Origin: Podarcis bocagei
Taxonomy: Eukaryota
Assembly (NCBI GenBank): GCA_964188305.1
Contig: OZ076889.1
Strand: one strand, 5' to 3'
Length of the DNA stretch: 64,000 nucleotides
Part shown: positions 5,794 through 55,300 of the stretch, one piece after another
Layout: every line of letters starts with the position of its first letter
How positions within the stretch are numbered: the stretch's first letter is position 1
The notes under the pieces: model-generated
Told to the model about the DNA's origin: nothing
Seen by the model: only the letters and a program-made list of their open reading frames with translations
The model's database searches: none
Made by a program: the position numbers and the translations under genes

Positions 5794-6147
5794 GGTAAAG
5801 GTAAAGGGACCCCTGACCATTAGGTCCAGTCGTGACCAACTCTGGGGTTGTGGCGCTCATCTCGCTTTACTGGCCGAGGGAGCCAGCGTACAGCTTCCGG
5901 ATCATGTGGCCAGCATGACTAAGCCCCTTCTGGCAAACCAGAGCAGCGCACGGAAATGCCCTTTACCTTCCCGCCGGAGCGGTACCTCTTTATCTACTTG
6001 CACTTTGACGTGCTTTCGAACTGCTAGGTTGGCAGGAACAGGGACTGAGCAATGGGAGCTCACCCCATTGCGGGGATTCAAACTGCCGACCTTCTGATCG
6101 GCAAGCCCTAAGCTCTGTGGTTTAACCCGCAGCGCCACCTGCGTCCA
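5794..6147 (-). mobile_element. Sauria SINE, full length
   Basis: Head GGACGCAGGTGGCGCTG, (ACCTTT)n tail, 14-bp TSD ccagaagcttgata (5780-5793 / 6148-6161). Confidence 0.93.
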
Positions 6148-6870: not shown

Positions 6871-6922
6871 GAAATAGCACACACACCCCTTCCTCCAACA
6901 TTTCCTGATATATAAAGGTAAA

Positions 6923-7368
6923 TGTCAGGGAACTGCCAAACTGCCATCAGAGGCACGGGAGAAGGAGAGGGTCTCTGATTCTGCAGGAGAAGGTCCCAGC
7001 GCTAGGGGGAGACTCAGCCGGGAAGAAGGGGAAGAGAATGAGTGTAACACCAGGGATCCAGGAGAGCAACGGGACAGGGAGGTGCAGGGGCTCCAGGACT
7101 CTTCGTTGGAAGTTAGTGAGGAGAGCCCAAGCACCCCGCTGCCCACGCCCACCCTGCGCAGGAGACTCCCGCGCAGTGAGAGGCGGAGACGATTGGGCGT
7201 CAAACAAATCTTATGTTGGCAACGCTTTAAGAAACGCCCACAGACAGATTCTACGAGTGACTAAGGGCAGCCACGCTGAGATGGGCTGTGCAGTCCGGAG
7301 GGTTTAACCAGGCAATCTAATGCTCAAACGGAGCAGGATTACGCACGAGTAACTCCCAACCCATTATA
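6923..7368 (+). mobile_element. Solo LTR family A, copy 1 (probably Gypsy-type), nested in a Sauria SINE tail
   Basis: TGTCAGGG...CCATTATA (terminal CA apparently mutated to TA), 5-bp TSD GTAAA (6918-6922 / 7369-7373), homologous to 9347-9778. Confidence 0.85.
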
Positions 7369-7373
7369 GTAAA

Positions 7374-7478
7374 GTAAGGTAAAGGACCCCTGGATGGTTA
7401 AGTCCAGTCACAGGTGACTATGGGGTGCTGGCCACATGACCCAGAATGTTGTCTGTGGACAAATGCTGGCTCCCTTGG
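7374..7478 (-). mobile_element. 5'-truncated, 5'-inverted Sauria SINE (tail continues at 6917-6922)
   Basis: Minus-strand SINE 3' end joined to a plus-strand internal SINE segment; 13-bp TSD cctgatatataaa (6904-6916 / 7479-7491). Confidence 0.8.
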
Positions 7479-7829
7479 CCTGATATATAAAATGCAACGC
7501 CTGCTTTAAGGAAAAGGTTTGCAACACCTTAATCAACTGGCTTCTGAATCTTTGTCAGAACCTGAAGTACCTGCAATGACTTAGATTCTGACAGGGAGGT
7601 GGGGACCACCCACAGACCTGCAGAAGTACGAGATCTGGACCCTGAAACTGAACCCCCCAAAAAACAAAAACGGGGGGCTACTGGAATTCAAGACTCCCAA
7701 CAACTGAGGGAGAACCCCCAGAGATTGCAGCCCCTAATTCAGGCCACAGTGAGAAAGCAATGTCATTGTCCCGAATAGACTAGCATACCAAAACAGTATT
7801 TCTGTGTGATGAGCCAGCCTGAGATCTAT

Positions 7830-8781
7830 GGACGAAGGGTGGTATACAAATGGACAAGAAAAGAAACTAGAGACTGAGGAGGAGGAAGAGATATACGCTG
7901 AACAGGAGGAGCAGAAAGGAGGGGCTGAAATGTTACAGAAGGCATATGAGAGCCGGAGGCCTGCCAAGATGGATATAAAAGAAAATAAGGATTGGAAGAG
8001 GAAAACTTGGTTTGAACTTAGAAATGAGGAATGGAAAGATCTTCCTTTGTGGGGATTTGAAGATCTAGGGTCTATTAATTTGATCAAGGTGGAAGCTGGA
8101 GCTTTTGGGACATTTGGATCCAAGAAATAGGATTTGAGCTCCACCTTTAAACAAGGAGGCCTGGCTGGAAGGAATATGGACATTATAGAGAGAGTGCCCC
8201 TTCGAGACTGGGTGTTAAATACAAGGGACTTTCAAAGAAGCCGGCAGAAAGGGACTGAGAGAGATTTAAGAGCCTCGGACGTGAGGTTGCCAGGCTGATA
8301 ATAGATGGACTAATGGACTATGGTTTTGGGATTGAAACCGGGGAAGGGAGGGTGGGGTTTGGAAATCCAAAGGGGGCTTGATCTTCTTTATTCTGTGTTT
8401 AATTCTGTGTTGCTATTAGTATAAGAATGGGGAATTCGTGGAAGGGAAATAGGGTCGACCTTAGAAAAAGTTTTTTTTTTATAAATGATTGAGGTATATA
8501 AGTTAAAAGTTGATATATTAACTGAACTAAATATAATAATGAATTAAGGTTAAAAATTTAATATAAATAAATATAATAACAAATTAAGGTTAAGAAATTT
8601 GAGATAAGAACTTGTTGGATAAATATTTGGACTTGGAATACAAGAAGGGGAGGTGAGGGGAAGTCGCGGAAAAAAGTTATTGAAAATGGGATTGTAAAGG
8701 ATGAATTCTTTTTTTCTTTTTCTTTTTTCTTTTTGTTTTCTGTATTATTTGAAACTCTAATAAATATTATTTTAAAAAAAA
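7830..8781 (+). mobile_element. 5'-truncated non-autonomous L1-type element, related to 11202-12936
   Basis: Shared 3' motifs (aaaccggggaagggaggg, aatccaaagg, ggggaaYtcgtgg), AATAAA plus A-tail; 5' boundary approximate. Confidence 0.65.
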
Positions 8782-9346
8782 CACACAAATGAATGAATGA
8801 ATGAACGAACGAATGAAATAAAAACTGCCCACCAATGCCCACAGTGTGCTCAGCAAGAAATGATAGAGAGATAATGGAGTGCAAAGATCCAAGCCAGAGT
8901 CCTGTCCCTATAGAGGTCTAAATTTTTCATAAAGGGGAAGAGCCTGGGAAGATATGAAAGTACTAAAAACAAGGCAGGTACGTAAACCAGTCAACCCAAA
9001 CACCAATACTGTCATTAAATTCCACTAAAAAGCCTGAACAAACAGCCTAGTCTTCAGCTAGGTGCTGAAATAAAGAAAACAATAAAATGCAACCGCGTCA
9101 TAATTGGGAAAAGAATTCCAAACTGGGGTGCCACCACCAAGACAGCTCTCTGAAAGGGCCTCTGCTAAAGATTGTACAGTAGGAGAACGCTCCCAGCAGA
9201 TCTTAACAAAATGGAAACCCATTTTTTACATCTCTCCATTAGGAGAACTCTCTGTCCATTTTCATGACATTTCTCTAACTGTTAATTTCCACATTTTATT
9301 TGAGCTTTCACACAATGTAAGAGCCACTTCCAGAACTATAGTGGAA

Positions 9347-9778
9347 TGTAATGTGTATGGGTTGCTCGTGCGTAAGTTGCCGCCTCTCCAGGCTTTGTTG
9401 CCTTGCTAAACCTTTCTGTCTGGACAGCCCTTCACTTCGTGGCTGCCTCAGTCGCTAGCAGAATCCGTCAGTGGGCGTTTCTTAAATCTTTTCCAACATA
9501 AAAGTTGTTTGACACCCAGTCTCCTCCTACTCTCTCTGTGCGAAAGTCTTCTGCGCAGGGTGGGCGTGGGTAGCGGAGGACCCGTGCTCTCCCCGCTGGT
9601 GTCCGGTGAAGAGTCCTGGAGCCCTCTCGCCAATTCCCCCATCAGCCCCTCTATATCCCTGGTGTTGCGCTGATTTGCTTCCCCATCTGCGGAGCTGCCT
9701 CTCTCCCTGCTGGGCCCTTCTCCAGCATCATTTGAGAGCCTTCCCTCCGCCTCTAGCTCTGATGTCAGTTCCCTGACA
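9347..9778 (-). mobile_element. Solo LTR family A, copy 2
   Basis: TG...CA termini, 5-bp TSD TGGAA (9342-9346 / 9779-9783), homologous to 6923-7368. Confidence 0.9.
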
Positions 9779-10198
9779 TGGAACTACAGTAGAATACAGA
9801 ATAAAGTTTAGCACTCATTTCTGTATTATTTGCAAACAGATTGTACCTAGAAGCAAATAACATGGAAATGAAATCAAGGAGGCATCCGAATGTGGAAATT
9901 AATTTCATAATTTTATTTCTGGTTTACAATAAAATAAAACCATAAAAACCAGGAAATTTTTGTATTAAAACATACAAGAAGTTAAAATACTGCTATGATA
10001 ATTTCAGTTACCCTTACATCGGCTGGGTACATGCATGTTCCAGTCATGACAAAAAGGCAAGCTTTTTAGGTACCCGAAATGACTGCGTCTTAGAAGAGTT
10101 GGTCATAGAACAAAGCAGAAAGGCTGTGACCCTGGACTTCATATTAATGGGGCCCTGGACCTGGTATGAGATTTAAGTGCTGAACCATTTGGAAGACC

Positions 10199-10533
10199 AG
10201 GTGGCGCTGTGGGTTAAACCACAGAGCCTAGGACTTGCTGATCAGAAGGTTGGCGGTTCAAATCCCCGCGACGGGGTGAGCTCCCGTTGCTTGTCCCTGC
10301 TCCTGCCAACATAGCAGTTCGAAAGCACGTCAAAGTGCAAGTAGATAAATAGGTACCACTCCTGCGGGAAGGTAAATGGCGTTTCCGTGCGCTGCTCTGG
10401 TTTGCCAGAAGTGGCTTAGTCATGCTGGCCACATGACCCGGAAGCTGTACACCGGCTCCCTCGGCCAATAAAGCGAGATGAGCGCCGCTTTGGTAACGAC
10501 TGGACCTAATGGTCAGGGGCCCCTTTACCTTTA
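10199..10533 (+). mobile_element. Sauria SINE
   Basis: Matches the other copies; ends ccctttacctttac. Confidence 0.92.
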
Positions 10534-11201
10534 CTTATCATAGTGCTATCAAATTCAACGTACATACAAGTCGATAATTGCCAAGAATATCCAGTGCAAT
10601 CACATTTGACTTCAAAAGAGGGATATGGTGCTCATTCTCTATTTCCTTAGCTGATTACTTTTCAATCAGTAAATTCTGAAACAAATATATAATCTTCTGT
10701 AAAAACCATCATCTTTATAACAGAGATGTGGCCCAGCCAAACGAGACTAAGGATCCTCCACAAGCAAATATCCCTCTTTAATTTAGCAAGGGGTTTATAT
10801 AATTATGCTTCCTGAACTAGCAAAATTTCTCTTGAGAGTGGTTCCTTAAGCACTTAAAGCATGCATATGGCAATCACAGGTTAGTTTTTGTAATGCTCTT
10901 TGGTCTTCTCATGTTACATTAAAACGTATCATGTGGGCTTTGGCATAGTTAATCTCTGCTTTATCCCCCTTGCCAGTTCAAGCAAGGGCAAGTCCATTGC
11001 ATTAACTCTGGTGCTTGCTCTTAATCTGGAGTATAACTGATGGAAGTCAGAAACCATTGTCTGAACTGCAGTTTAGTAAGTACTTTCAGCAAAAGAAAAA
11101 GAAAGGCCGTTCAAGACTGTTGAATGCCTTTCAAGCATCAAAACAGAGGAACATTTCTGTATTTGCCCATGATGTAGAACCTTTAAGTCCCTTTACATCT
11201 T

Positions 11202-27678: not shown

Positions 27679-28105
27679 TACATTGAAATATTGGAACTGC
27701 AAAGCAAGTTGCACGTGAGTGGTGGTGGGCAAGCTGTATTTCTCTAGCTGAGCCTTTCTGCCAGGCACAGTGAACAAGATCCCTCCCACTAGTAGTTCCT
27801 AGGTGATGAGAAGCTTTAAAAAACCTTTGAAAGGGTGTGGTGATTTAGAATTCATGAGATCTGGAAACAAAATGCATGTGATTCTTGAATGATTTGCCTT
27901 TTGATTACTGAGATTTTCAAAAACACAGCCCTCTTTTCTTCACCTAATGCTTATCTGTGAAATCTTGAGACCTCCCAACTTACTATTCTGAAAATGAAGG
28001 CAGAGGTTCTCAGCATCTCACTGGATTCAAAGGCTGACATGCCATTCATCTGAAGCCCCTCTCTGAACCTCGTGAAGAAAAAGTTCTCCCCCTCCCCTTC
28101 CTTAC

Positions 28106-28399
28106 CTGTGTAGCTCATATAATTGTTGAAGGGAGTTCCAGAGAAGTGGGTCTGGCCACAAGTGTCATTGGTCGGATCCGGATCCCGGCAGCGTTTGCTT
28201 TTGGGAGTAGGTGCTGTATCAGCACAAAGATCTCCAGTCTCCATGGATGGTGTCGTCTCCCTGCACAGGTCATCACAGGATTCCCTTTCATTTACTCCCT
28301 TAAAGACATGGTAGAGTCCCAGGATGTGTCCCACTTCATGGATCATGGTATTTGTATGACCCGGCATACCATAATAGGCCGGATTGAGGACCACACCGC
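28106..28399 (-). CDS. PAPPA2: Pappalysin-2 catalytic exon with zinc-binding motif and Met-turn
   Basis: tgtttcag|GCGGT ... ACAG|gtaagg; 294 nt; [11 protein letters not shown] (HEXXHXXGXXH, 28308-28340), [12 protein letters not shown], Met-turn NYMSY. Confidence 0.98.
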
Positions 28400-29006
28400 C
28401 TGAAACAGCAAAAGCATTCAATGTCACTCAGAGAGAGGAGTGGAATCCTGAGCTAAAGTAAATGCCAACTTTTCCAATGAGAAGTTCCAAATAGTGTTCC
28501 TCATCATGAGAAGACTGGCTCTGCTGCTGCTGCTGCTGCTGGGAATGGCCTCTGTAGAGCTGACCATCTTTAGCTCCAGCCCAAGGTGAGCACCCTATGA
28601 CAGATCAACAGATGGGAGAGGAAGCCCACTCAGCTACCTTAGAGTATCCATGCAGCCGACTAGAGTCCTTCCTGCCAGCAGAACTACTTATGAGTAAGTA
28701 TACCAATCTGCATGCCAGCTCATTAGGAAAAAGGGATTCAGGTTGAAGTCGTTCCCGGTCTGCTGCTTTGCTCCTGAGGATGAGCTTCAGCAACAAGATG
28801 CATTCTTTCACGAGTAGACATGTTTGAAGCAGCAGGCTGGACAGAAAAGTGATTCTACTGCTGCCTTTCAAGGCGTACACACCCAAAAAGTGTGAGTGAC
28901 AGCAGAACTTATTTTGGGGAGGGGGGCAGAAGTCTACTTCTCGTCCCAAAAGGAAGTGGCTGCAGCAAAGACACCCCGAAAATTAACTGCCACTAATGTG
29001 TGTGTT

Positions 29007-29372
29007 GGGACGCGGGTGGCGCAGTGGGTAAAACCTCAGTGCCTAGGACTTGCCGATCGCATGGTCGGTGGTTCGAATCCCCGCGGCTGGGTGAGCTCCC
29101 GTCTTTCGGTCCTAGCTCCTGCCCACCTAGCAGTTCGAAAGCACTCTTAAGTGCAAGTAGATAAATAGGTACTGCTTTATAGCGGAAAGGTAAACGGCGT
29201 TTCCGTGTGCTGCACTGGTCCGGCTCGCCAGAGCAGCTTCGTCACGCTGGCCACGTGACCCGGAAGTGTCTCCGGACAGCGCTGGCCCCCGGCCTCTTAA
29301 GTGAGATGAGTGCACAACCCTAGAGTCGGACACAACTGGCCCGTACGGGCAGGGGTACCTTTACCTTTACCT
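29007..29372 (+). mobile_element. Sauria SINE, distinct subfamily
   Basis: Full head and (ACCTTT) tail, 13-bp TSD taatgtgtRtgtt; internal differences from the other copies. Confidence 0.92.
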
Positions 29373-32300
29373 TAATGTGTATGTTACAGACATTTCCACA
29401 GGCGTTCTTCCATCTTTTTTTCATGATTATTCTGTCCTTTAAGAATACTTGTCAATTAAGCAGCCAAACATTCTCAAAGTGAACACCAATTATTTGACCG
29501 TTATCGAACACTGTCAAATGTGGGAGAGGGGGCTGAATCTGATGCCCCCTTCTTTTCATTATTCCATCCTTGTTTCTAATATCTAAGGCCATGGGATACA
29601 GGCCAGGAACTGTTCCGTCTTTTAAATATCATACATACATGTCGAAACACTGTTGCCTATAAATAATAACTCTTTTTGTTATAAAAAGTAAACTTGGGTT
29701 GTTGTTTTTCATAATGAGTAAGTCACACTATTTAGAATTCTGAAAAATGAATGTGTTAATATTTTGCCATAAATATTTCTGGTGAAGTAGGCTCTCCTCC
29801 CCAAAGTTTTGGTCACAATAAATGCCTTAGCTGCTAGGGTTCTCTTTGTTACAAAAGGCTAACACAGTTCTCCCCTTGGCAAATCAACCTTATCTGACAG
29901 TATTTGACCCTGCTTAAAGAAACACTTTTCGACAGATCAAATGGCCAGGCCACCTTTCTCTGCCATTTTTGCATGGCAAGGCGGCAGGCAGGAGAGCTCC
30001 ATTCACTGAACGGGGAGCTCCTTAGCTAACAAGCAAAAATTAAACCAGGAAAAGAAAACTGTGGCTGATTTCCCAGCCAAACCCCAGTCTGAGACAGGAG
30101 GCTCCCTTGCTGAAAGCAAAGGAGAGGAATGTGAGTGAGTGAAGAAAGAAAACCTTGCTAATAGCTAAGTTAATGGGATGTTAGAGCCCAGCCATAATCC
30201 CGCTGTGTCAACCGCTAACAGCAAACAGCAAAGTGAGTCTGATTGCTGAGGGCACGAGGGGCCTCAAAACCTACTCTTCCCACCTTCAAGTAGAAACTTG
30301 AAACCCGTTCCACTGGAGAAAATATGAGCGGGAGAGAGCCAGCTACTGCTGAGAAGTGTCTTGGCAACTTTGTGCTCAATCCCCCCTTTCTCCAAGACTG
30401 CGAGCTTGTTTTCAAACTGGGTGAACACAAAAAAATCCATTTAGTGGGGGAAAGGTTGCCCGTTCTCTCTGATCCCTCTCCTGTGTGAACATTTCTGCAT
30501 ATTGCAAGGGCCAAATTGGCTGCCCAAGGTCTCTGGGAAAGTGGGGGTGGAATAGTTTTTAAAGCTTCTGCTGCCCTAGGATATCATCTATAGCAGTCAC
30601 ACCTCCCCTTTCTAGATACCATGCTGGCCAGCTCATTTAGTTTTACTTGTGGACTTGTTAGGAATCAGCTTTGATTTTAAAAACAAAAAACTGTCAGCAA
30701 GTGACTGCACAAAGGCCAGGGCCACCCATCAACCATGGAAGTTAAGAGGTGTGGACTGAGTTCATGATGGCCTTTGCTTAGAGATCAAAACCTCAGCAAG
30801 CCAATAATCCTAGTTTGTCAAAGGCCAATGCTTTGGCTTCTCTTCAGGAACAGAGAATTTACCACATAGGAGCTTAGGCCTTCATAAAAAATCCCAGCAG
30901 GCTACAAGTACTTAAGCAAGCACTTCGCCACACAAGTCAACACCCCTGAACTTTTGGATCTAACCAACTAAGCTGAAAGGTCAGTTCTGATGGCTGCAAC
31001 AAGACCTGATGTTATGGCCCTCAAGTATCTGGGTCAGTAGAATGTGCTATAGGACAACCAACCTCTGCATTTTCAGGATTCACACTTTTCTCCAGCCTGG
31101 CAGTCTAAAGTATATTGCGCCAAACAAAACTGATTTCTCTTCAGAAGACAAGGCTCTGTAGTAAAGTGTGTGGCATCTAGCAGTAAGTGGCAAATATGGG
31201 AGACTTTCTTCCTCCCCCCCTCTCTCTCTGAAGAGAAAACCTGAAGTCACCCAATGAAATGGTTGAGCAACAGATTCAGTTAAAAGAAATATACGGCATT
31301 AATAAGTAATATACAGCATTCACTGCCTCAAGTTGTGTTGATGGCCATTGGATTGGATGACAGAGATTATAGGAAGGAGTATTCAAATTAACGGCATAAA
31401 GCTCTATCAAAGTCCATGGGAGACAAAAAAAAATTGTCTCAGATTTTAATGTGTTATTTCTCAAAATTGTTAGGGTTAATGTGAGGCTTGAGACACTGAG
31501 TGTTTTGTTATTATTCAGATGATATTTACTGATGTACAGAAGGGCTAGGGGTTTTTTAGATCTTTTAACAGCTGCCAATGATGTTTTGGCTCAGCAATGG
31601 AAAACAGCCACACCTACTTAAGGAACGGCTAATTAAAAGTTCTGGAAATGACCAAAATGGATATGCTTGTGATCAACACCAGAAAAATGGCTTCTCCCGT
31701 CTGCCCCCAATTAAAGTGGGAGGAAAAATTGGTTCCATTTCTCTTTACTCCACTGCGATACTAAAAAGAGTATTTTTGCAACATTTAATTTTTGAATGTA
31801 AAACAAGATGAAAGAAAAATCGGTGACTGTTTAGTCAAACCTGTTACTATATTGGCTATAAATATTATGATGGCATGCAGGAGCCAGAAAAAATGGTTTT
31901 GAGGACTGTATTTAGCCCACAGACCATCAGCTGGACATTCCTGCCCTAAGTAGGAAGAAAAGGAGATAAAGGGTCTCCAGGGGGCTTTGAACCTTGGAAA
32001 GTTGTCACTGAGGTGAAGTGTGGTGTGCTGGAGGAAAAGAATGAGAATCAAGAATGGGGAGCTTGCCTCAACACCCCAGCTCAGGCAGCTAAAGGAAATG
32101 GTTTGGTGAATTTTTTTGTGCAGCTGTCCAGTGTTCAACTTTGTGAGCAGGTATCTTGAAAAGATCTACAAGATTCCTGCGAAACCCAAGCCACGTGCAT
32201 TGGAAAATGCCTCCTAAAAGGGAACAAGGAACTCTTGAAGTCTCTGAACTAGATCTCTCCTGCAAAAATTCCCACATCACAAATCTGCTTTTGAATCAAA

Positions 32301-35213: not shown

Positions 35214-36310
35214 CATAGAATCATAGAATCATAGAGTTGGAAGAGACCACAAGGGCCATCGAGTCCAACCCCCTGCCAAGCAGGAAACACCATCAGAGCA
35301 CTCCTGACATATGGTTGTCAAGCCTCTGCTTAAAGACCTCCAAAGAAGGAGACTCCACCACACTCCTTGGCAGCAAATTCCACTGTCGAACAGCTCTTAC
35401 TGTCAGGAAGTTCTTCCTAATGTTTAGGTGGAATCTTCTTTCTTGTAGTTTGGATCCATTGCTCCGTGTCCGCTTCTCTGGAGCAGCAGAAAACAACCTT
35501 TCTCCCTCCTCTATGTGACATCCTTTTATATATTTGAACATGGCTATCATATCACCCCTTAACCTCCTCTTCTCCAGGCTAAACATGCCCAGCTCCCTTA
35601 GCCGTTCCTCATAAGGCATCGTTTCCAGGCCTTTGACCATTTTGGTTGCCCTCCTCTGGACACGTTCCAGTTTGTCAGTGTCCTTCTTGAATTGTGGTGC
35701 CCAGAACTGGACACAGTACTCCAGGTGTGGTCTGACCAGAGCAGAATACAGTGGCACTATTACTTCCCTTGATCTAGATGCTATACTCCTATTGATGCAG
35801 CCCAGAATTGCATTGGCTTTTTTAGCTGCCGCGTCACACTGTTGGCTCATGTCAAGTTTGTGGTCAACCAAGACTCCTAGATCCTTTTCACATGTACTGC
35901 TCTCAAGCCAGGTGTCACCCATCTTGTATTTGTGCTTCTCATTTTTTTTGCCCAAGTGCAATACTTTACATTTCTCCCTGTTAAAATTCATCTTGTTTGT
36001 TTTGGCCCAGTTCTCTAATCTGTCAAGGTCGTTTTGAAGTGTGATCCTGTCCTCTGGGGTGTTAGCCACCCCTCCCAGTTTGGTGTCATCTGCAAATTTG
36101 ATCAGGATGCCCTTGAGTCCATCATCCAAGTCGTTGATAAAGATGTTAAATAAGACCGGGCCCAAGACAGAACCCTGTGGCACCCCACTAGTCACTCTTC
36201 TCCAGGATGAAGAGGAACCATTGATGAGCACCCTTTGGGTTCGGTCAGTCAGCCAGTTACAAATCCACTGAGTGGTAGCAGAGTCAAGACCGCAATTTAC
36301 CAGCTTCTTT
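35214..36310 (-). mobile_element. Young CR1 LINE, 5'-truncated (RT C-terminal half, open frame 35293-36231)
   Basis: [41 protein letters not shown]; (ATTCTATG)n tail. Confidence 0.97.
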
Positions 36311-36844
36311 CTTATGTGGTCTCTTATTTAGGGCAAAACATTTGCAAAGAGCAAGGCCAATCCATCTCACTGTCCCAATATTGCAGGTTGAAAGCGCTTG
36401 CATCTGCTGTCCAGGTGGATCAGGTGCCCAGCAGGGGCTGGGATGAAGATGAGAGGGTGGGTTACAAGTTCTCTGCAATAATATGCCTTGCTCCTATCTT
36501 CGCATTGGGTTGACCACCGTGAGAACAGGATGCTGACCACTGACCCCGCAGGCTCCTCTTATGTTTACATTGCAGGCTGGGCTGAGAGAGTGATGTTCAT
36601 TCTTATTTACTTAATACAATTAGCTGTGTCCTGCATTTTAGGGCGCCAAGTGCTTTAAGGTGTCTTATAAGTAACACCAGAGCACAACAGAATATTGACA
36701 AAATAACAATAACGATCAAAAATATAATATGGGTTATTTCACAACCACTTATTCTCATCCTTACACTAGTGCAACAGCCCTTGCGTTGACATCCAGTGAC
36801 AACCAAAATTGGTTTGCTTTGAGAGCATATGTTGCAGCCCGCAT

Positions 36845-38395: not shown

Positions 38396-38609
38396 TAATT
38401 AAGTTGGGCAAGCTTGTGGTAAGAAAACAAATGGCATTGAATTTCACCCTTAGTTAACAATCCAGTCCTGGGCATGTTAAGTGGAGCTTACTCCTATACA
38501 ACCACACATAGGATCACAGCCTGCACCAATCCTGTGTCCTTCAAGACACATTGCAGTTCTGCAGGAGAGTAAAAAGGGGGAAAGCTGCCACTGAGCACCG
38601 CTTCCTCCA

Positions 38610-44020: not shown

Positions 44021-45165
44021 GCACATTTGAACAATTTACACTGTCATTCTTCCTTAGTGGGGACTATATTTGTTCTCCACCTTTGTGCCAATAAGGTTCT
44101 AGCTGTGGTGGTGGCGTATAGTAATAAACTCTTTTGGGTTTTGGGGGGACCTCGGTTGTTACCATCCCCAAGAGGAAAATCTCAGGTGTTTTGGGGAGAG
44201 GCCCATCTGCTCTAGAAGGGAGGGCAAGGAGGACCGCAGGTTGGAGCCAGGAGTGCTGGCCAAGGAGGGAGGCTGTGAGGCGCAGCCCTGAACTCCAGCC
44301 ACACACACTTCCCACCCCCCTGGAAAAACAGAGAGGAGAAAAGCAAAGCTAAGAATTATGGAAAGGAAAGAGAAGGGCAAGGGACACCAACTGGAAGCAA
44401 AATGACACTGATTCAAAGAGACAAGTCGGGAGACAGACTAATAAAGTCCGAGACGTGTCTCAAGAGGAACCGCCTGACCTGTGTCTGAACAGGACCCAGA
44501 AGTATTTGGCTGACCCTAGTCGATAGCCACCACATTGCAAATGTTCTTTTCAGTACAAAGGGCAGCGTACTGACAGCCTCTTCACACACTATAAATCTCC
44601 TGCATGGAAAGCAGCTCAGCAGAGGAAAAAGCACACCCAGATAACGTGCAAACATACGTCCCACACACATTTCATTTTGGGTGTGTTCTACAATAACGCT
44701 CAATGAACAGGTCTCTGGAGGAGCCCTCAATGCCTTTCACTAGGTATAAAATACATTTTGATCACTCGTGTGTTCTTAAAATGGCGAGTCCCTGAATCTC
44801 AGCATTCTACACACCATGGAACATGCACGAGGACACTGGCCAATAAGAGGTTCTGGGTAGTCTTCCATTGAGAAACAGAGAGATTCCATGACTCTGCCCT
44901 ACACAAAGCAGCAGAAATAAAGTGTGGTGGCCCATGCCCTTTAGTTTGCTGGCATCACACCAATGTCTCACATTGGGGAACTTCAGTCTTTCTCTATACC
45001 AATGAAAGCCAGGTGCCCATTGCCACATCTACCACATCACTTCAAAATGCCAAGGCCCCTGTCACCCCAACTGGTGCACTTGCCCACTCCAAATAATCTA
45101 CTTACTTTCTGAACCAGCATCTACTGAGGAGGAGTAGAGACTAATACCAAGTGCTAACTTGCTAA

Positions 45166-45522
45166 CTTGGTGGCACTGTGGTCTAAAGCACAGAGCCCAG
45201 GATTTGCCTATCAGAAGGTCGGCAGTTCCAATCCCCATGACAGGGTGAGCTCCCGTTGCTCGGTCCCAGCTCCTGCCCACATAGCAGTTCGAAAGCACAT
45301 CAAAGTGCAAGTAGATAAATAGGTACCACTCCGGCGGGAAGGTAAACGGCGTTTCCGTGTGCTGCTCTGGTTCACCAGAAGTGGCTTAGTCATGCTGGCC
45401 ACATGACCCAGAAAAACTGTCTGTGGACAAATGTCGGCTCCCTCAGCCAGTAAAGCAAGATGAGCGCCGCAACCCCAGAGTCGTCTGTGACTGGACCTAA
45501 CAGTTAGAGGTACCTTTACCTT
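45166..45522 (+). mobile_element. Sauria SINE
   Basis: Body matches the other copies; 11-bp TSD taacttgctaa (45155-45165 / 45523-45533). Confidence 0.92.
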
Positions 45523-46109
45523 TAACTTGCTAAGCTGTGCATGACACCATTTTGTAAGCCTGTCACAAGTCTTCCCTTTTTTCCCCTCACCATGGAGAGT
45601 TTACCACAATGCTCTTCAGTTCACATGACTAACTTTCTCCATACAAAAAAGAAAAGAAAATTAAAATCCCCATATGCAGAAAACTGCCGTGTCAGTGAGA
45701 AGGCTAAGCTAAAACCTTTCTCTCCTGGTATTTAATTTTTCTACCTGCAGGATGTTTTGAGGTCATTGTTTGAATGCAGGAACATTCAGTCATGAGAGCC
45801 CCTTCCAAAAATCTGAAGCGGAAGAGCCAAGACAAAGGTTTGCCACCTCCTGGAGAATTAGGCTCCAGGTCACTCACTGTGCTACAAAACCCAGGAAGAA
45901 CTTAAATCCAAAGCTGATGATCTATCTACAGCTCTACCCCAGCTGCCTAAATACTTTACAGTTACATAAAGTAAAATATAAGGCTTAAGTTCACCTTCCC
46001 AGTTGCCCTGTTGTTAACTGCTTTGCTTTACTCTGGCACAGCAGACCTTGCTGAGTCAAGAATATAGCTAGCTAAGCCTCCACAAAACGTGAGACAAAGA
46101 ACAAACATA

Positions 46110-46611
46110 CAGTGGTGCCTCGCAAGACGAACGCCTCGCAAGACGGAAAACCCGCAAGACGAAAGGGTTTTCTGTTTTGGAGGCGCTTCGCAAGACGAAT
46201 TTCCCTATGGGCTTGCTTCGCAAGAAGAAAGCCCATAGGGAAATCTCCGGGGACCTCTTTTAAATGCTGGTGGTGGGGAGCAAAGCCTTTCCCCCAGTCC
46301 GGCCTTCAGAAGAGGTCCAGGAAGGCCGGCGGGGGCCGAAAGGCTTTGCTCCCCACCGCCAGCATTTTAAAAGCAGTCCGGGATAGCAGGGAAGCGCTTC
46401 CCGCTATCGCGGACGGCTTTTGAAGGCAGGCGGGGGGGAGCAAAGACTTTCGCCCCCCGCCCACCTTCAGAAGAGGTCCTGGACCTCTTCTGAAGGCGGA
46501 CGGGGGGCGAAAGTCTTTGCTCCCCCCTGCCTGCCTTCCCGGGAGAGCGGAGAAAGGCAGCGCGTTTCTCCGCTGTCCCGGACGGCTTTTGAAGGCGGGG
46601 GGGGGCAAAGA
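46110..46611 (+). mobile_element. One-ended Tigger/pogo-like MITE with CpG-rich palindromic interior
   Basis: TA-CAGTGGTGCCTCGC terminus, repeated cgcaagacg subterminal motifs; right TIR absent. Confidence 0.8.
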
Positions 46612-47125: not shown

Positions 47126-48353
47126 CTGTGCACACGGTCCTTTCTTCTTGAAATTAGGATGGGATGAACTGCGATTATAATAAAAAATACATTGTTGTTG
47201 TTGTTGTTCCACATGTGTCTGCGTGTGAGATAATGAGAGAAACTTCAGTTGCAACCACATAATGGAATATCGTTTTCCTCCGGCGATAAATCTAGCCCAG
47301 TCTGCATCTTATTGCTCTGGCTCCTTGGGGCTCGTTTTGTTGGGTGTTTTTTAATGGTAGCTGGTAGACAGAATCAATCACACAAGCGGTAATCCCCTGC
47401 AAATGGAACTTAATAGATTTTTTAAAAGGCAGCCTATTGACCCAGAGACCTTAATGGCTCAGGAGCTGCTTGAGTCTGGCGTGCAAATTCGCCAGCAGAC
47501 AGTTTATAAATGCACACAAATCGAAAAGGGTAGTAAAAATCCTTTTAAGTGGCAGGCCCTCCAAAAGCACAACAGAGAATTTCCAGCATTAGAGCTCTTG
47601 GTATTTACATTATAACCTCCCATGGTTGCCTCAGTGAGATGCTGAATGGATGGCCGGCAGGGAGCCAGCATCTTCCTGCCACAGCTGAAGAGGATGACAT
47701 CACCAGAAAGACAAGCAGGTGTCCAGCAAAGTTTTAGGACTTCGGATTAAGTGAACTGGGCAATAGATATCAACATCTTGAATTGACCTTTTATTTTAGG
47801 TGGAGCTATCACCATGTTTTGCCATATGTGAAATTCTGGTGAGAAACTAGGAGGTCCCTACTTGAGAAAAGAATCAAAAGGAATTTTTTTAAGCCTTGCA
47901 AAGTGAACATCTCAATATTGCCACCAGATTTTGCATTAAGTAACATTTCAAAGCAAAATGAAAGACTCCTGATTTAGCAAAACAACCATGGAATTTTGAG
48001 GGAACCCAAAAAGATATTTGCAGTTCCGTTCTGTGCATTGTTTCTTTTTCGACTGATCAATGTGAATCATTCTGTCAGGCAGTGTGAAAGGTGGGATAGA
48101 GTCTTGCACCTCTGGGCCTTAGGTGTGAGTCCTGGCTCTGCCTTGGGATCACTGTCTGGGCCTCAGGCAGATTCAATTCCCACTCTTTGCACAGTGACCC
48201 CAAAAATAGTGTATGGATTAAATGAATGCAGGTTATAAAGCACTCTGCAAATGAAAAGTGCTATATTAGATTGATGATTATGACAACGCCCACCTGCATA
48301 GTTCAGTTTCCTGGGTCATAGATGTTGTTTTTTAATTTAGGATGGCCATAAAC

Positions 48354-48704
48354 GTAAAGGTAAAGGGACCCTTTACCATTAGGTCCAGTCGGGGCTGACT
48401 CTGGGGTTGTGGCGTTCATCTCGCTTTACTGACCGAGGGAGCCGGAGTACAGCTTCCGGGTCATGTGGCCAGCATGACTAAGCTGCTTCTGGCGAACCAG
48501 AGCAGCGCACGGAAACGCCATTTAGTTTCCTACCAGAACGGTACCTATTTATCTACTTGCACTTTGACGTGCTTTCAAACTGCTAGGTTGGCAGGAGCAG
48601 AGACCGAGCAATGGGAGCTCACCCCATTGCAGGTATTTGAACCGCCGACCATCTGATTGGCAAGCCCTAGGCTCTGTGGTTTAACCCACAGCGCCACCCG
48701 CGTC
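48354..48704 (-). mobile_element. Sauria SINE
   Basis: Full head and tail, matches 5794-6147. Confidence 0.92.
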
Positions 48705-50498: not shown

Positions 50499-51237
50499 CA
50501 GTATTAGCAGCTCTATGCGGAAGACTTCCATGTCAATTGGCAAGGAGACGCACATCGCCGTTTAAGGAGTCTCCACATTCACTGGCTGAGTCTACAAACA
50601 ACACGAGGGATATTCAAATTACAGACATGAAATCAGCTTCAACAGTCATTCTCCCTTCCCATGAGAGCTTTAGCGCTGCGAGGAGAGCCCAGAGATCTCT
50701 AGACAAATAATTATGCGCACCATTGCCAAACTTAAGTTCCAATACAGAGGTGGTGAACATTTTAAGTAGTATAAAGCCGTTAAATGTCTGAACGTGAAAC
50801 AGGGCAGAAGCAGGTATTGGAAACCTGTGAACCTCCAGAAGCCATTGGACTACAACACCCATCATCACCGGCCAGCCACTGGCCATGCTGGCTGGAGCCA
50901 AGGGAAGTGGGAGTAACGGAAGAGGGAGGACCACAGGCTCTCTGCAGGTATGTGCCTCTGCAGCCTCAGGCACATTTACTCCTTTCTCCTGCTCCCACCC
51001 ACCCCACCCCCCATCAGCAAACATCTCTCTCCCTTCCACTGCACTGCTAGCACTGCATCAGCAGTAGTCAGCGCAGACCACAGTTCACATTAGCCTAAAC
51101 CCAGAGAAATGAATAGTATGAGAGGGGAATCAATGGACATGATCCTGTGGACTTCATTGCAATGGGCTTTAGTGCCTAGGAGTCTCCAGGCAGGAGGGCA
51201 GGGCCCTCCCTCCCTCCCTTGTCCGCCCACAACTTAC

Positions 51238-52300
51238 CGGTGTGGAGATTCAGGGTCAAAGCACGTCTTCTTCACGTTGGTCACTCTGGGGTTGCAACAG
51301 TCCCCGTCGTCAAAATTGTCAAGCATGTTGTTGCATTCCATGTTGCAAACCCCATCCCGGCGCACCCAGTCGTAGCAACGCCCCAGCCGGCGGCAGTCCC
51401 CCCCGTCGTAGCCAGTCAGCGGGTGCTCGCACTCGGGGTCACAGTATTCATTGCCAATCTTGCTGGGCTCACAGTTCATCAGGACCACGCGGTGGCGGAG
51501 CAAGGAGCTCTGCACCTTGTGTACGCTCAGTTGCCAGGTGATGTTATAGCGGCCAAAGGCCCCGCTCAGCACTCGGTGCTGGTGGGCAATCTGCTCCTGG
51601 CTGACAGTAGGATGGAGCCCCTCATCGTCATGAATGTTGACGACCCGGTAACGGACCACCTTCTCATTCCTCAGCGGCCAGTGGCTGTTGTAGTAGGAGA
51701 TCAACTCCACGTTGTCGCAGACGGTCTGCCCACAGAGAGGGGGCACGAGCGGTGAGAAAACCGGAGGCTCTGGCACTTGGAAGGACTCCACCAGGGGGTA
51801 GGCACCATCTTTGAATGTTACCCATTGCTGCTCCAGGCGGCTGAACCTTGCACTGAGCACCATGGTAGCTTCTCTGTCTTCAACCTTTCTCAAGAAAGCT
51901 CTCTGGAGTTTCTCCTGGGGTAAAGCAGCATTCCAAATGGCCAGCAGAGCCAGGTGGCCACGGAAGTGGTGCCCGTCCTCTGAGCTGTCACCTCCCAGAA
52001 TCAAGGTGCGGCAAGAAGCCATGAAGGGACTGTGGAGGGCCCCAGACTGCTGGGAACTACGAGCCACCCGTTCCCCGTTCAGGTACAGCAGCATCTGCTT
52101 CCCGTTGTAGGTGGCAGCCACATGAGCCCACGTATTGAGTTCATAGCGGTGTGGTACCGATATGGTGGAAGATCTCTTGAAGCGGTCTGTCCGGAGTGAG
52201 AAGAAGAAACGGGCATCCTTCTTCCCGGTGTTCTCCTGCGTGCGGATGCCAAGAGTCCAGCCCCTGTCACTGGCAACGTGGGAGCAATTGTCAAACACAC
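51238..52300 (-). CDS. PAPPA2: Pappalysin-2 large coding exon (LamG-like domain, start of protease domain, LNR1-LNR2); equivalent to human exon 3
   Basis: Acceptor tctctctcctccactcag|GTGTGTTT, donor CACCG|gtaagt; 1063 nt, phase 1 to 2. Encodes [74 protein letters not shown]. These are PAPPA2-type rather than PAPPA-type residues. Confidence 0.97.
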
Positions 52301-55300
52301 CTGAGTGGAGGAGAGAGAGAAAAGAAGAAAATTCAGCACAGATGCTAGTACAATGACCACACTACCTCTCAGCTCTAGAACAGGAGGAGTGATTTTAGGA
52401 TGAATCCACACCAGATCTTCAAACTGGCTTGGATCCAAGGGCACTATAGTGGCTACCCTCAAAGAACCCTGGAAACTGCAAGAGATGTGAAGAAGTCTTT
52501 GTTTAAGAGGGATGACAATTTCCAAGGTTTCCTGCTAACAAATCTAAACCAAAACAGGTTGGAAACGCATTTAAAATTTGGTCCACCAGACACCAATTCC
52601 AATTCGGTTCAAATTTGTACCCACAAAGATAGTATCCAACCCTAATCATTAACCTGGGCTGTCTGGAATCTGCTACATCAGTCATGGCACCATGAAGGCA
52701 GTGAGAAAGGGCACATTCGCTGCACCACATCCATCTAAAGATCTTACTGGAGAAAGAAGTGCTTTGTTCCAAATCTGAGGCAAGAAGAGGAGGAAGACAA
52801 GCAGTGTGAAGGCTTCTCTCCAGCACTGAACTTTTTTTTTTGGGGGGGGGGTGTCTCCCAAGTTTGCAGCAAATGCCAGTGGTGACAACTGGCCAGTCCC
52901 TTCAACTGCCACTGAGAAATGCACACACCAAATCCCTGTAGCTGCTCAGAAACGTTTTTATCAGATTGCTTTTTTTAAAGGAAAGCGAACACACTGGCCG
53001 GAGCATAGCAAAAATTATGGCTGAATCAGCATTAACCTCAAAAGAATATACTTCAGTCATCCTAACTGCAAATCTGGGAGAAAATGCATACTGTGGGTGA
53101 GCGCCACCACGGTGACTTCTCTTTAAATAATACGCCAGTCTTCTTGACCCTGCACTGTGAAAACTTCTATAAACTGGAAAACAGCGATCGATGCCTTCCT
53201 GCTGTTGTACAGCTATGCACAATATCATGTTTCACTTTGTAGAAGCCTTATCCTTCCATACACAAACATTCTACTCCTCCTCTGTCTATGATATTGCCAC
53301 CGGACGGTCGTGGGGTGGGCAGTCATTCCATAAGACGACTCAGGCATCTCCAACTCCTGAACTATGCAAAGCTCATCATTATAAGAACTGTGCCTGAGTT
53401 TTATTCCTCTCCCTCTTCCTTCTCTGTCACATTTCTCTTGTATGTGAACTTTTTTCCCCATTTAGATTGTATTATTATTATCATCATCATCATTATCACT
53501 ATTATTTATTATCAACAAAATGTATTATTATTATTATTAATTCATTGTCACTATTATTTGTATTACTAGATCAGGATCTTTGCTTGCAACTCAAGGCGGT
53601 CTGTAGTCTTCAAGGTTGCAGCAGCAACCAAGTCAGGCTGCGTCCAGGGATCAGAACCTGCTTTGTTCAGCTTTGTTCCCTACCAGTGGAGCTATCCAGA
53701 GAGTCAGTGCTGACTGAGCAACTACGGTAAGCCCCTAGGAAAATCGCAGCGGACAGGCCCTGAGTGGCTACTCTTGCTCTCAGTCCTGTCCGTGTTAAAC
53801 AGGCTTATTTCTTGCCTCTTCAACAGAACAATTATTTTCCCAGCTGGCTTACTGGGAGAACTGAATGTAGCCTGGAGAACCACCCTAGCTTCAACTCTGC
53901 AACCAGGCCACTCATATTCTGCAGACTGGGTATTTGCATGCATTTTGCATAAATTAATTGGCTGAAATCACCCATGTTTGAGGATACTTAATTTTTTGCA
54001 GGTGAAAAGGGGGGTGGTAAGTAATTAAAGGAGAATGACATGGAAATATTTCTATGCTCTTGTCCTCTTATCCATGGGGGTTAGAATCATGTTTATTTAA
54101 ATGACATCTGATGACCTTAGGATGCCAAATGTGTTACTAAGTGTGAACAGTTGCAGGAATATCTTGTCAGGGGCTCATTGCCAGCTCCAAAATTCCCTTC
54201 TTGTTGTCAGGGACTCTGAAGCTTGAAGTGGGAACCTCATGGCCTGAAACTGGAGCCCAAACTAGCAAACTGTGCAGTGGACCTGAATGCATTCAACTGC
54301 AAGAACCCTCTTAAGGCACAGAAAGGAATAAGAATACGCAACACTGGCCCCGCCTGAAGCCTCTAGGTTGGCCATTCACAGTAGCTCTTGGCCAGGTCAA
54401 CAGAAGAATGCCTTCTGCTCAGTGAAGCTGGAGAATATATCCACCACATCTAATGAAAGGACATTTTAGCTGTACATTTAAATATTTTTTATAGCTTGAG
54501 GAAATGCTTTCATTAATGTTCTTACCCATCCTGAGCCTTCAAGGTAAAGAAACGTTATGTATTTTAAACACATACAAAAATACTCTGCTACCACTGTTCT
54601 AGAAGCATCCCTTCCCAGAAGATTTCCCTCAAGAATCTACTTCTGTTCACAGCCCCGATCTCTCTTTTAAGGATGAGTTAGCGCAAAACAACCACAAGGA
54701 TGCTTTTTTGCGCTCTCTCTCACTGCCTGTTCCTCACTATCCAGAGGAGGAGCTTCCACACATTCAATTTCATCAACAAGTGTCTGCCTGGAGCTCTGCA
54801 TTGTTACCAAAGGGCTTCCACATCTGGAGCCCCATCTGGCATTGGCAAACTTGCTCCCTCCCCTTGATGCTGTTCCAGCTCTTTGCATTTGCCCACTGCC
54901 GTCCGAGACTTCGCCCTGCTAGAGGCCCAGAAACTACTGCTCCGGAAAAGTCAAGAACATTTTCCGGGCCCCTGCGTCAGAAGCCCAGCCAGCAAGTAGG
55001 AATATGCCCAGGAATGTGTCTGATGCTGCAATCTGAGAGCTCCACTCCAGCATCGCTTCGAACAAGCAAGCAATTCCCTTTGTCAGGAAGCCAACGTGTG
55101 AAACCATCCAACATAGGAGCAAGGAGGTGGAAGCAGGAACTAAGGGGGATCTGGTTCAGAGGAACCTGTAATAAGGGCTTCGGCTCAAGCAGAAAGGAGA
55201 GAACCCAGAGGCCCTCCAGAAGAGCTGTGCAGCAGAAGGTGGCATCTGTTGCAACAGGGCATTGCCAGGAGGTTAGGAAGTGGGAGGATCTAGAGCACAG

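Follow-up and report, generated by a model that had tools for sequence, protein, structure and literature searches.

A Lizard Gypsy Chromovirus Integrase Frame That Runs Through the PPT into the 3′ LTR, Traced from Two Solo LTRs

Introduction

How can a repeat that lacks a gene of its own carry a frame that looks selected? The window analyzed here, the whole 64,000-nt stretch of a Podarcis bocagei contig (OZ076889.1), contains two diverged LTR-like repeats on opposite strands, and in both a stop-free frame begins at the 5′ end and continues for about 110 codons. An initial annotation of this DNA, made from its letters, regarded the frame as selected and proposed that the parent element reads either a pol/integrase tail or an accessory ORF through the PPT into U3. 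We therefore examined the two repeats, their parent elements and the protein to which the frame belongs.

Results

Two repeats in the window are solo LTRs of young subfamilies

A perfect 5-bp TSD surrounds each repeat (GTAAA/GTAAA and TGGAA/TGGAA), so both are solo LTRs, as had been claimed, and the two copies align to each other over their full length. Their features are as follows.

6923..7368 (+): solo LTR, subfamily A (copy 1); 446 nt including an 8-nt duplication; termini TG..TA; 5-bp TSD
6918..6922, second copy 7369-7373 (+): TSD GTAAA of copy 1, flanking the solo LTR
6931..6946 (+): 8-nt tandem duplication in copy 1; private to copy 1 among the scored matches
6924..7264 (+): LTR-coded integrase tail, copy 1; acidic/Ser spacer, then Arg-rich block with a conserved Trp; stop TAA 7262-7264
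7136..7261 (+): selected basic block, copy 1 (last 42 codons); dN/dS 0.13-0.19 between subfamilies
7240..7250 (+): self-primer, copy 1, 11 nt, in the last codons; complementary to leader nt 3-13 of parent L062; putative transcript start and U3/R border
9347..9778 (-): solo LTR, subfamily B (copy 2); 432 nt; termini TG..CA; TSD TGGAA at 9342-9346 and 9779-9783
9448..9777 (-): LTR-coded integrase tail, copy 2; 109 codons plus stop TGA 9450-9448; in Pol register
9462..9472 (-): self-primer, subfamily B, 11 nt; departs from the primer of A in step with its own PBS

The initial annotation was right that the two frames end at the same aligned place (TAA 7262-7264 and TGA 9450-9448) and that they share no ATG; none exists, and the frame opens upstream, continuous with the integrase. 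The 8-nt duplication that it noted in copy 1 is present, to which a correction must be added: because of the duplication (6931-6946), copy 1 is no longer in the parental Pol register. The tail frame is untranslatable from a solo LTR and is not expected to be translated there; the solo LTRs merely inherit the signal.

First-look genome searches returned 2724 candidates for subfamily A and 3662 for subfamily B, and the 39 other scored matches of each were 98-99% identical. Perfect TSDs were found at 20 of 30 fetched A loci and 28 of 30 fetched B loci, and nine of the A loci were joined to internal sequence. Both subfamilies are young and high-copy, and belong to one lacertid Gypsy chromovirus. 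The best-matching subfamily A LTRs (L001-L030) mostly end in TA instead of CA, yet have perfect 5-bp TSDs.

Elsewhere in the window, 49 of 121 ORFs were scanned, and matches to Peptidase_M43, Laminin_G_3 and LNR at 27954-28427 (-) and 51237-52361 (-) mark a pappalysin-like gene on the minus strand; the two solo LTRs are located further along this strand, possibly in an intron. Copies of a SINE family, presumably of Sauria type, occupy 5795-6146, 10200-10540, 29007-29377, 45161-45528 and 48347-48704. A LINE RT fragment lies at 35296-36327, and 3′ pieces that are 98-99% identical occur at 38608 and 49078. A near-perfect palindrome at 46422-46538 has 58-nt arms that are 95% complementary with 1 nt between them.

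The end of the LTR frame is under purifying selection in replicating elements

The codon counts of the initial annotation proved exact: over the last 58 codons, copies 1 and 2 have 30 identical, 13 synonymous-only and 15 non-synonymous codons, and over the last 42 codons 23, 11 and 8, respectively; the first-position synonymous pairs are also as it listed them. NG dN/dS between the copies is 0.21 for the last 58 codons and 0.18 for the last 42, and the differences at codon positions 1, 2 and 3 number 13, 5 and 19. When the same substitutions were placed at random, 15 or fewer amino-acid changes arose with p ~0.003 (mean 22), which upholds the proposed excess of synonymous changes over the expectation without selection. 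The other reading frames gave dN/dS of 0.8-2.5, save the antisense frame that shares third positions (0.31); an antisense ORF was rejected despite this value, as stops interrupt it in seven of nine family representatives.

Comparison of A with four B copies gave dN/dS of 0.04-0.05 for the integrase core, 0.10-0.12 for the chromodomain, 0.24-0.33 for the linker, 0.60-0.81 for the first ~51 LTR codons and 0.13-0.19 for the last 42. Selection therefore holds for the last ~58 codons of the frame but not for the first ~51 in the LTR, which are near neutral; in this respect the initial annotation needs correction. The LTR has roughly half the synonymous divergence of the integrase core (dS 0.5-0.7 vs 1.1-1.5), so constraint at the DNA/RNA level or LTR exchange must play a part as well. 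The self-primer overlaps the selected frame, and the last codons are bound to it.

We also compared families over a block of 34 codons that ends just past the conserved Trp, upstream of the primer. Six pairs drawn from four families gave a pN/pS of 0.17-0.39 for this block, and three pairs from another group gave 0.34-0.44; in the most distant family, one close pair reached 0.83 (4 vs 10 changes). Length differences among the four families are multiples of 3, and second codon positions are depleted in all six A-D pairs.

Private changes in solo copies are near neutral (9 synonymous/15 non-synonymous and 4/11). This is expected, since selection acts only on replicating parents, and it places the origin of the selection signal in replication, not in the host. 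The initial annotation had looked for a low dN/dS across many copies; that demand was too strict, the ratio being near neutral in solo copies and low between replicating subfamilies. Between those subfamilies, the last ~58 codons have been under purifying selection.

The frame is the end of an integrase gene that reads through the PPT

Full-length copies are Gypsy elements of ~5.4-5.6 kb with gag and an overlapping pol. They have two LTRs, a TSD and gag followed by PR-RT-RH-IN, the order of RT, RH and IN being taken from translations. In L062, an open stretch of 597 codons encodes the integrase zinc finger, core, SH3-like domain and chromodomain and ends at the LTR stop. Pfam recognized rve, SH3_Tf2-1, Chromo and Integrase_H2C2 together on the ORF of this type; the C-terminal chromodomain matched Chromo with E 8e-9 and also matched HP1.

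Searches with two distant Podarcis proteins added further families. Thirteen of 18 examined loci have two LTRs, and in 12 of these 13 the long ORF ends 304-334 nt inside the 3′ LTR, whose matches in the two-LTR elements span 387-437 nt. A 3′-junction pattern of subfamily B gave 23 matches, against 0 for the control, and the 20 that were fetched share the same register. Among 59 3′ junctions (three junction-less loci and several refetched duplicates omitted, with some near-duplicate rows retained), 38 have the chromodomain in the same open frame, and 32 of these continue for at least 70 LTR codons; the remaining 21 are interrupted upstream and represent decayed copies. Parents of A and of B alike have the open frame into the 3′ LTR, as do distant sister families. 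The order in the parent is integrase core, GPY/F, chromodomain, an acidic linker of 50-105 aa, PPT, ~100-110 LTR codons and stop. The integrase gene thereby spans, in frame and via the PPT, about three quarters of the 3′ LTR.

Of the two origins that the initial annotation had offered, the integrase tail is the one found: the internal ORF that enters the LTR of the recovered two-LTR elements is the integrase-chromodomain Pol ORF, stop-free in 12 of 13. The nef/sag-like accessory ORF becomes superfluous, since a frame continuous with integrase needs no start or splice of its own. When RNA from four runs was matched to the end of one element, each run yielded 50-96 records, almost all of them within the LTR part. 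In the three raw-read runs 75-86% of records continue into unlike sequence; these records are thus uninformative about Pol expression or the start site.

Several observations were made alongside. L061 is an internally deleted two-LTR copy of ~2.7 kb, and L095 has three LTRs and a short stub of gag fused to the PPT; each may be a non-autonomous derivative. Beside a subfamily A element, L067:4550-8570 (-) has DIRS-type-like ORFs (gag, RT-RH, tyrosine recombinase-like), as judged by eye from translations. Contig C19 (96.5 Mb) of genome G000 holds a large share of the internal-domain matches, many near-identical and with long open frames, and is possibly a non-recombining W chromosome with amplified blocks.

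A self-primer lies in the last codons

Leader nt 3-13 can pair with a word of 11-12 nt in the last codons in six of nine elements; in the other three the match is 10, 9 and 6 nt long. The mean for shuffles is ~6 nt, and two of the nine elements have weak primer matches (6 and 9 nt). Four primer sequence variants covary with the PBS side, and in the predicted fold the primer is base-paired to the PBS (z -2.4). The elements thus have the self-primer complementary to a non-tRNA PBS (pretzel) that typifies the Tf1/sushi group. With a Tf1-type self-primer located in the last codons, we infer that U3 is wholly coding. The transcript would start at the self-primer, as in Tf1, ~25-45 nt before the stop; the ORF would cover all of U3 and end early in R, and U3 would double as promoter. 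AATAAA or a close variant after the stop is absent from four of five LTRs checked (L062, L096, L152 and L159) and AATAAA is present in the distant family L157.

The linker carries FxGF motifs beside a cage-less chromodomain

We next consider the linker between the chromodomain and the PPT. From 25 loci, 23 linkers were parsed and one near-duplicate was dropped; all 22 that remained contain an F, 8-9 mostly acidic/Ser/Thr residues and FxGF, and 15 contain two such motifs, with L replacing an F of the motif in a few copies. In shuffled linkers two motifs occurred with P ≤1e-4 and one with P 0.005-0.025. TND-interacting motifs (TIMs) are described as a helix, an acidic linker of 8-16 aa and FxGF, the last being present in all known LEDGF/HRP2 partners (PMC9987994; for the motif, also bioRxiv 10.1101/624023). 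The lizard linkers fit the pattern of a hydrophobic anchor, an acidic S/T linker of 8-16 aa (here 8-9 aa) and FxGF, and we consider it probable that their motifs are TIMs.

In an AlphaFold model, the motif anchor forms a four-residue helix at low confidence within a low-pLDDT region. Prediction of a complex between the first motif and the Podarcis LEDGF domain scored 0.30 against a mark of 0.34; it was made without alignments or folded controls and counts neither way. A search of the PDB with the linker profile gave no match at E ≤10. PSIP1-like and HDGFL2-like domains are both encoded in the genome, the PSIP1 exon being 100% identical to that of Podarcis muralis and the second domain being one that we take to be HDGFL2.

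Relative to HP1, the first and third cage aromatics of the chromodomain are lost in all 18 loci parsed (19 given), all of which bear the motif, so the three-aromatic cage of a group I chromodomain (an H3K9me reader) is lacking. Among library chromodomains, of which 74 of 150 were parsed, 62 keep both cage residues and have no motif, four lack both residues and have the motif, and eight show other combinations. A tree places the motif-bearing integrases, 15 of its 28 rows, together on one side of a 100/100 branch, and the link between motif and cage therefore amounts to one event, not to several independent ones. The queries with which the families were found themselves carried the motif, and the tree rows are mostly unnamed chromovirus matches, with no named sushi-ichi or Tf1 row. 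All named members of the motif-bearing clade are from Podarcis. Proteins P0124 and P0134 share the design; P0134 retains the LLCW block and is 42% identical to the query over the chromodomain-linker part.

The tail retains an acidic spacer, a basic block and a Trp

Across distant families the tail retains the acidic/Ser spacer, the basic block and the Trp but little else; identity is 16-33%, and one family lacks the Trp. In 13 of 14 tails the block around the Trp carries a net charge of +5 to +12. AlphaFold models only the chromodomain with confidence; at the first motif and at the Trp block it places short helices of low confidence. On balance we favor a disordered tail in which the Arg-rich/Trp block is a putative NLS or chromatin anchor. 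Pfam contained no family for either window peptide. Likenesses to CENP-C, cyclin-docking RxL and palmitoylation motifs were dropped because neither the spacing nor the Cys is kept across families. A single protein, a gene model, matched the 206-aa tail in a word-based search: in P. muralis, a phospholipid-transporting ATPase model (P0003, UniRef A0A670JKR6) ends in the LTR peptide. This ending is likely a gene-prediction artefact, exonisation being the alternative reading.

Discussion

Taken together, we conclude with a probability of roughly 0.85 that both repeats derive, as solo LTRs, from a young lizard Gypsy chromovirus and that the LTR frame is the selected C-terminal tail of its integrase, likely serving nuclear import or chromatin tethering. 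Three other accounts of the frame were weighed. Conserved promoter and self-priming elements in DNA or RNA could mimic selection on protein, and the halved dS of the LTR, the self-primer in the last codons and the LL-C-W codons, which lie ~30 nt upstream of the putative start and are T/A-rich in three families, would all suit such an explanation. It is nevertheless largely refuted, and very improbable, given the 13/5/19 distribution over codon positions (p ~0.003), the depletion of second positions in all six A-D pairs, a family that alters the T/A-rich word synonymously while keeping LLCW, and the continuity of the frame with integrase. Retroviral precedents exist for an accessory protein. 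A separate product in the style of nef or MMTV sag, made by splicing or from its own start, or a Pol peptide released by protease, would accommodate the near-neutral spacer that precedes the conserved block. We regard this as unlikely, since no stop separates the frame from integrase, no ATG is shared and, as a weak argument, the few RNA reads show no recurrent splice joint. Least probable of all is domestication, in which host selection keeps the solo LTR peptide. Among the best-matching copies, 25 of 30 and 29 of 30 have an open frame, and the P. muralis ATPase model ends in the peptide, but these copies are young and were picked for their similarity, their private changes are close to neutral (9/15 and 4/11), copy 1 of the window is frameshifted, and the frame lacks a start codon.

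What the linker motifs do is a separate matter from the selected integrase tail. LEDGF is the factor by which HIV chooses its insertion sites. The FxGF motifs probably bind a TND, most plausibly that of LEDGF/HRP2, and we propose tentatively that they do bind LEDGF/HRP2 and so replace H3K9me reading as the means of targeting, the chromodomain having lost its cage. The clade would then have lost a heterochromatin-reading cage and gained host-mimicking TIM/FxGF motifs; these would tether integrase to the H3K36me3 readers LEDGF/HRP2 and direct insertion into active gene bodies, with the whole of U3 recruited as a coding chromatin/import tail. This combined switch in integration targeting, through cage loss, LEDGF/HRP2 tethering and a coding U3, is offered as a working idea of the same tentative standing. 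A competing idea, to which we give slightly less weight, accepts the read-through and has the motifs bind another TND protein (TFIIS, Elongin A, PNUTS, MED26 or IWS1) or serve transcription or stability. PMC9987994 bears on both, as TIMs bind many TNDs with differing selectivity, whereas FxGF occurs in all known LEDGF/HRP2 partners and is uniquely important there. The position of the motif on the integrase, at the usual targeting site and beside a cage-less chromodomain, also speaks against another TND partner.

If the motifs do bind LEDGF/HRP2, the element would have converged on the lentiviral integration cofactor by way of a copied host motif, a non-lentiviral retroelement reaching an HIV cofactor by linear-motif mimicry, and would represent a natural switch from heterochromatin to active-chromatin targeting. 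Thousands of young insertions within a single genome, together with short peptides, make the targeting idea open to test. A coding U3 would give a vertebrate LTR triple duty as promoter, self-primer and protein. In addition, solo LTRs of this clade resemble selected genes and can leak into gene models.

Among known systems, the element resembles the chromoviruses of the Tf1/sushi group (sushi-ichi, Tf1, MAGGY), with which it shares the Gypsy order, a chromodomain integrase, overlapping gag/pol and a self-priming primer-PBS duplex (bioRxiv 10.1101/2022.12.06.519325). Its motif-less relatives mostly stop some 40-75 aa past the chromodomain core and have an intact aromatic cage, whereas the lizard clade has a tail of 180-250 aa that extends across the PPT and over the inferred U3. 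A clear AATAAA is present in the Sushi LTR model (PMC3601003), while four of five lizard LTRs have none after the stop. The loss of the first and third cage aromatics recalls group II chromodomains of plant chromoviruses, which PMC3350952 and PMC3605345 report only from plants as of 2012-2013; the loss in the lizard clade is probably independent.

The linker motifs resemble the TIMs of JPO2, IWS1, MLL1, MED1 and JIL-1 in having a hydrophobic anchor, an acidic Ser/Thr linker of 8-9 aa and FxGF, often in tandem (PMC9987994; bioRxiv 10.1101/624023). Known TIM carriers are host proteins, whereas the lizard motif, a putative TIM, sits on an integrase. Lentiviral integrase binds the same LEDGF domain through its folded core, with no linear motif. 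A full-text search, with most subscription papers and Repbase-type reports outside it, found no report of TIM/FxGF motifs on a retrotransposon integrase and none of coding into the 3′ LTR in a vertebrate chromovirus.

HIV nef and MMTV sag overlap U3 as separate genes expressed from their own transcripts; the lizard element shares with them a protein-coding U3 and differs in that its frame forms the Pol terminus. Coding sequence that enters the 3′ LTR has been described for the plant CRM, Beetle and Bingo elements (PMC3059260; PMC3605345), and the lizard element has this in common with plant CRM group A. These plant elements (CRM group A, Beetle and Bingo) are tRNA-primed, the PBS of CRM group A being that for tRNA-Met, and have a CR motif in place of the chromodomain. 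The lizard element, in contrast, is self-primed and retains a chromodomain, located before the PPT, to which it adds an acidic/basic tail.
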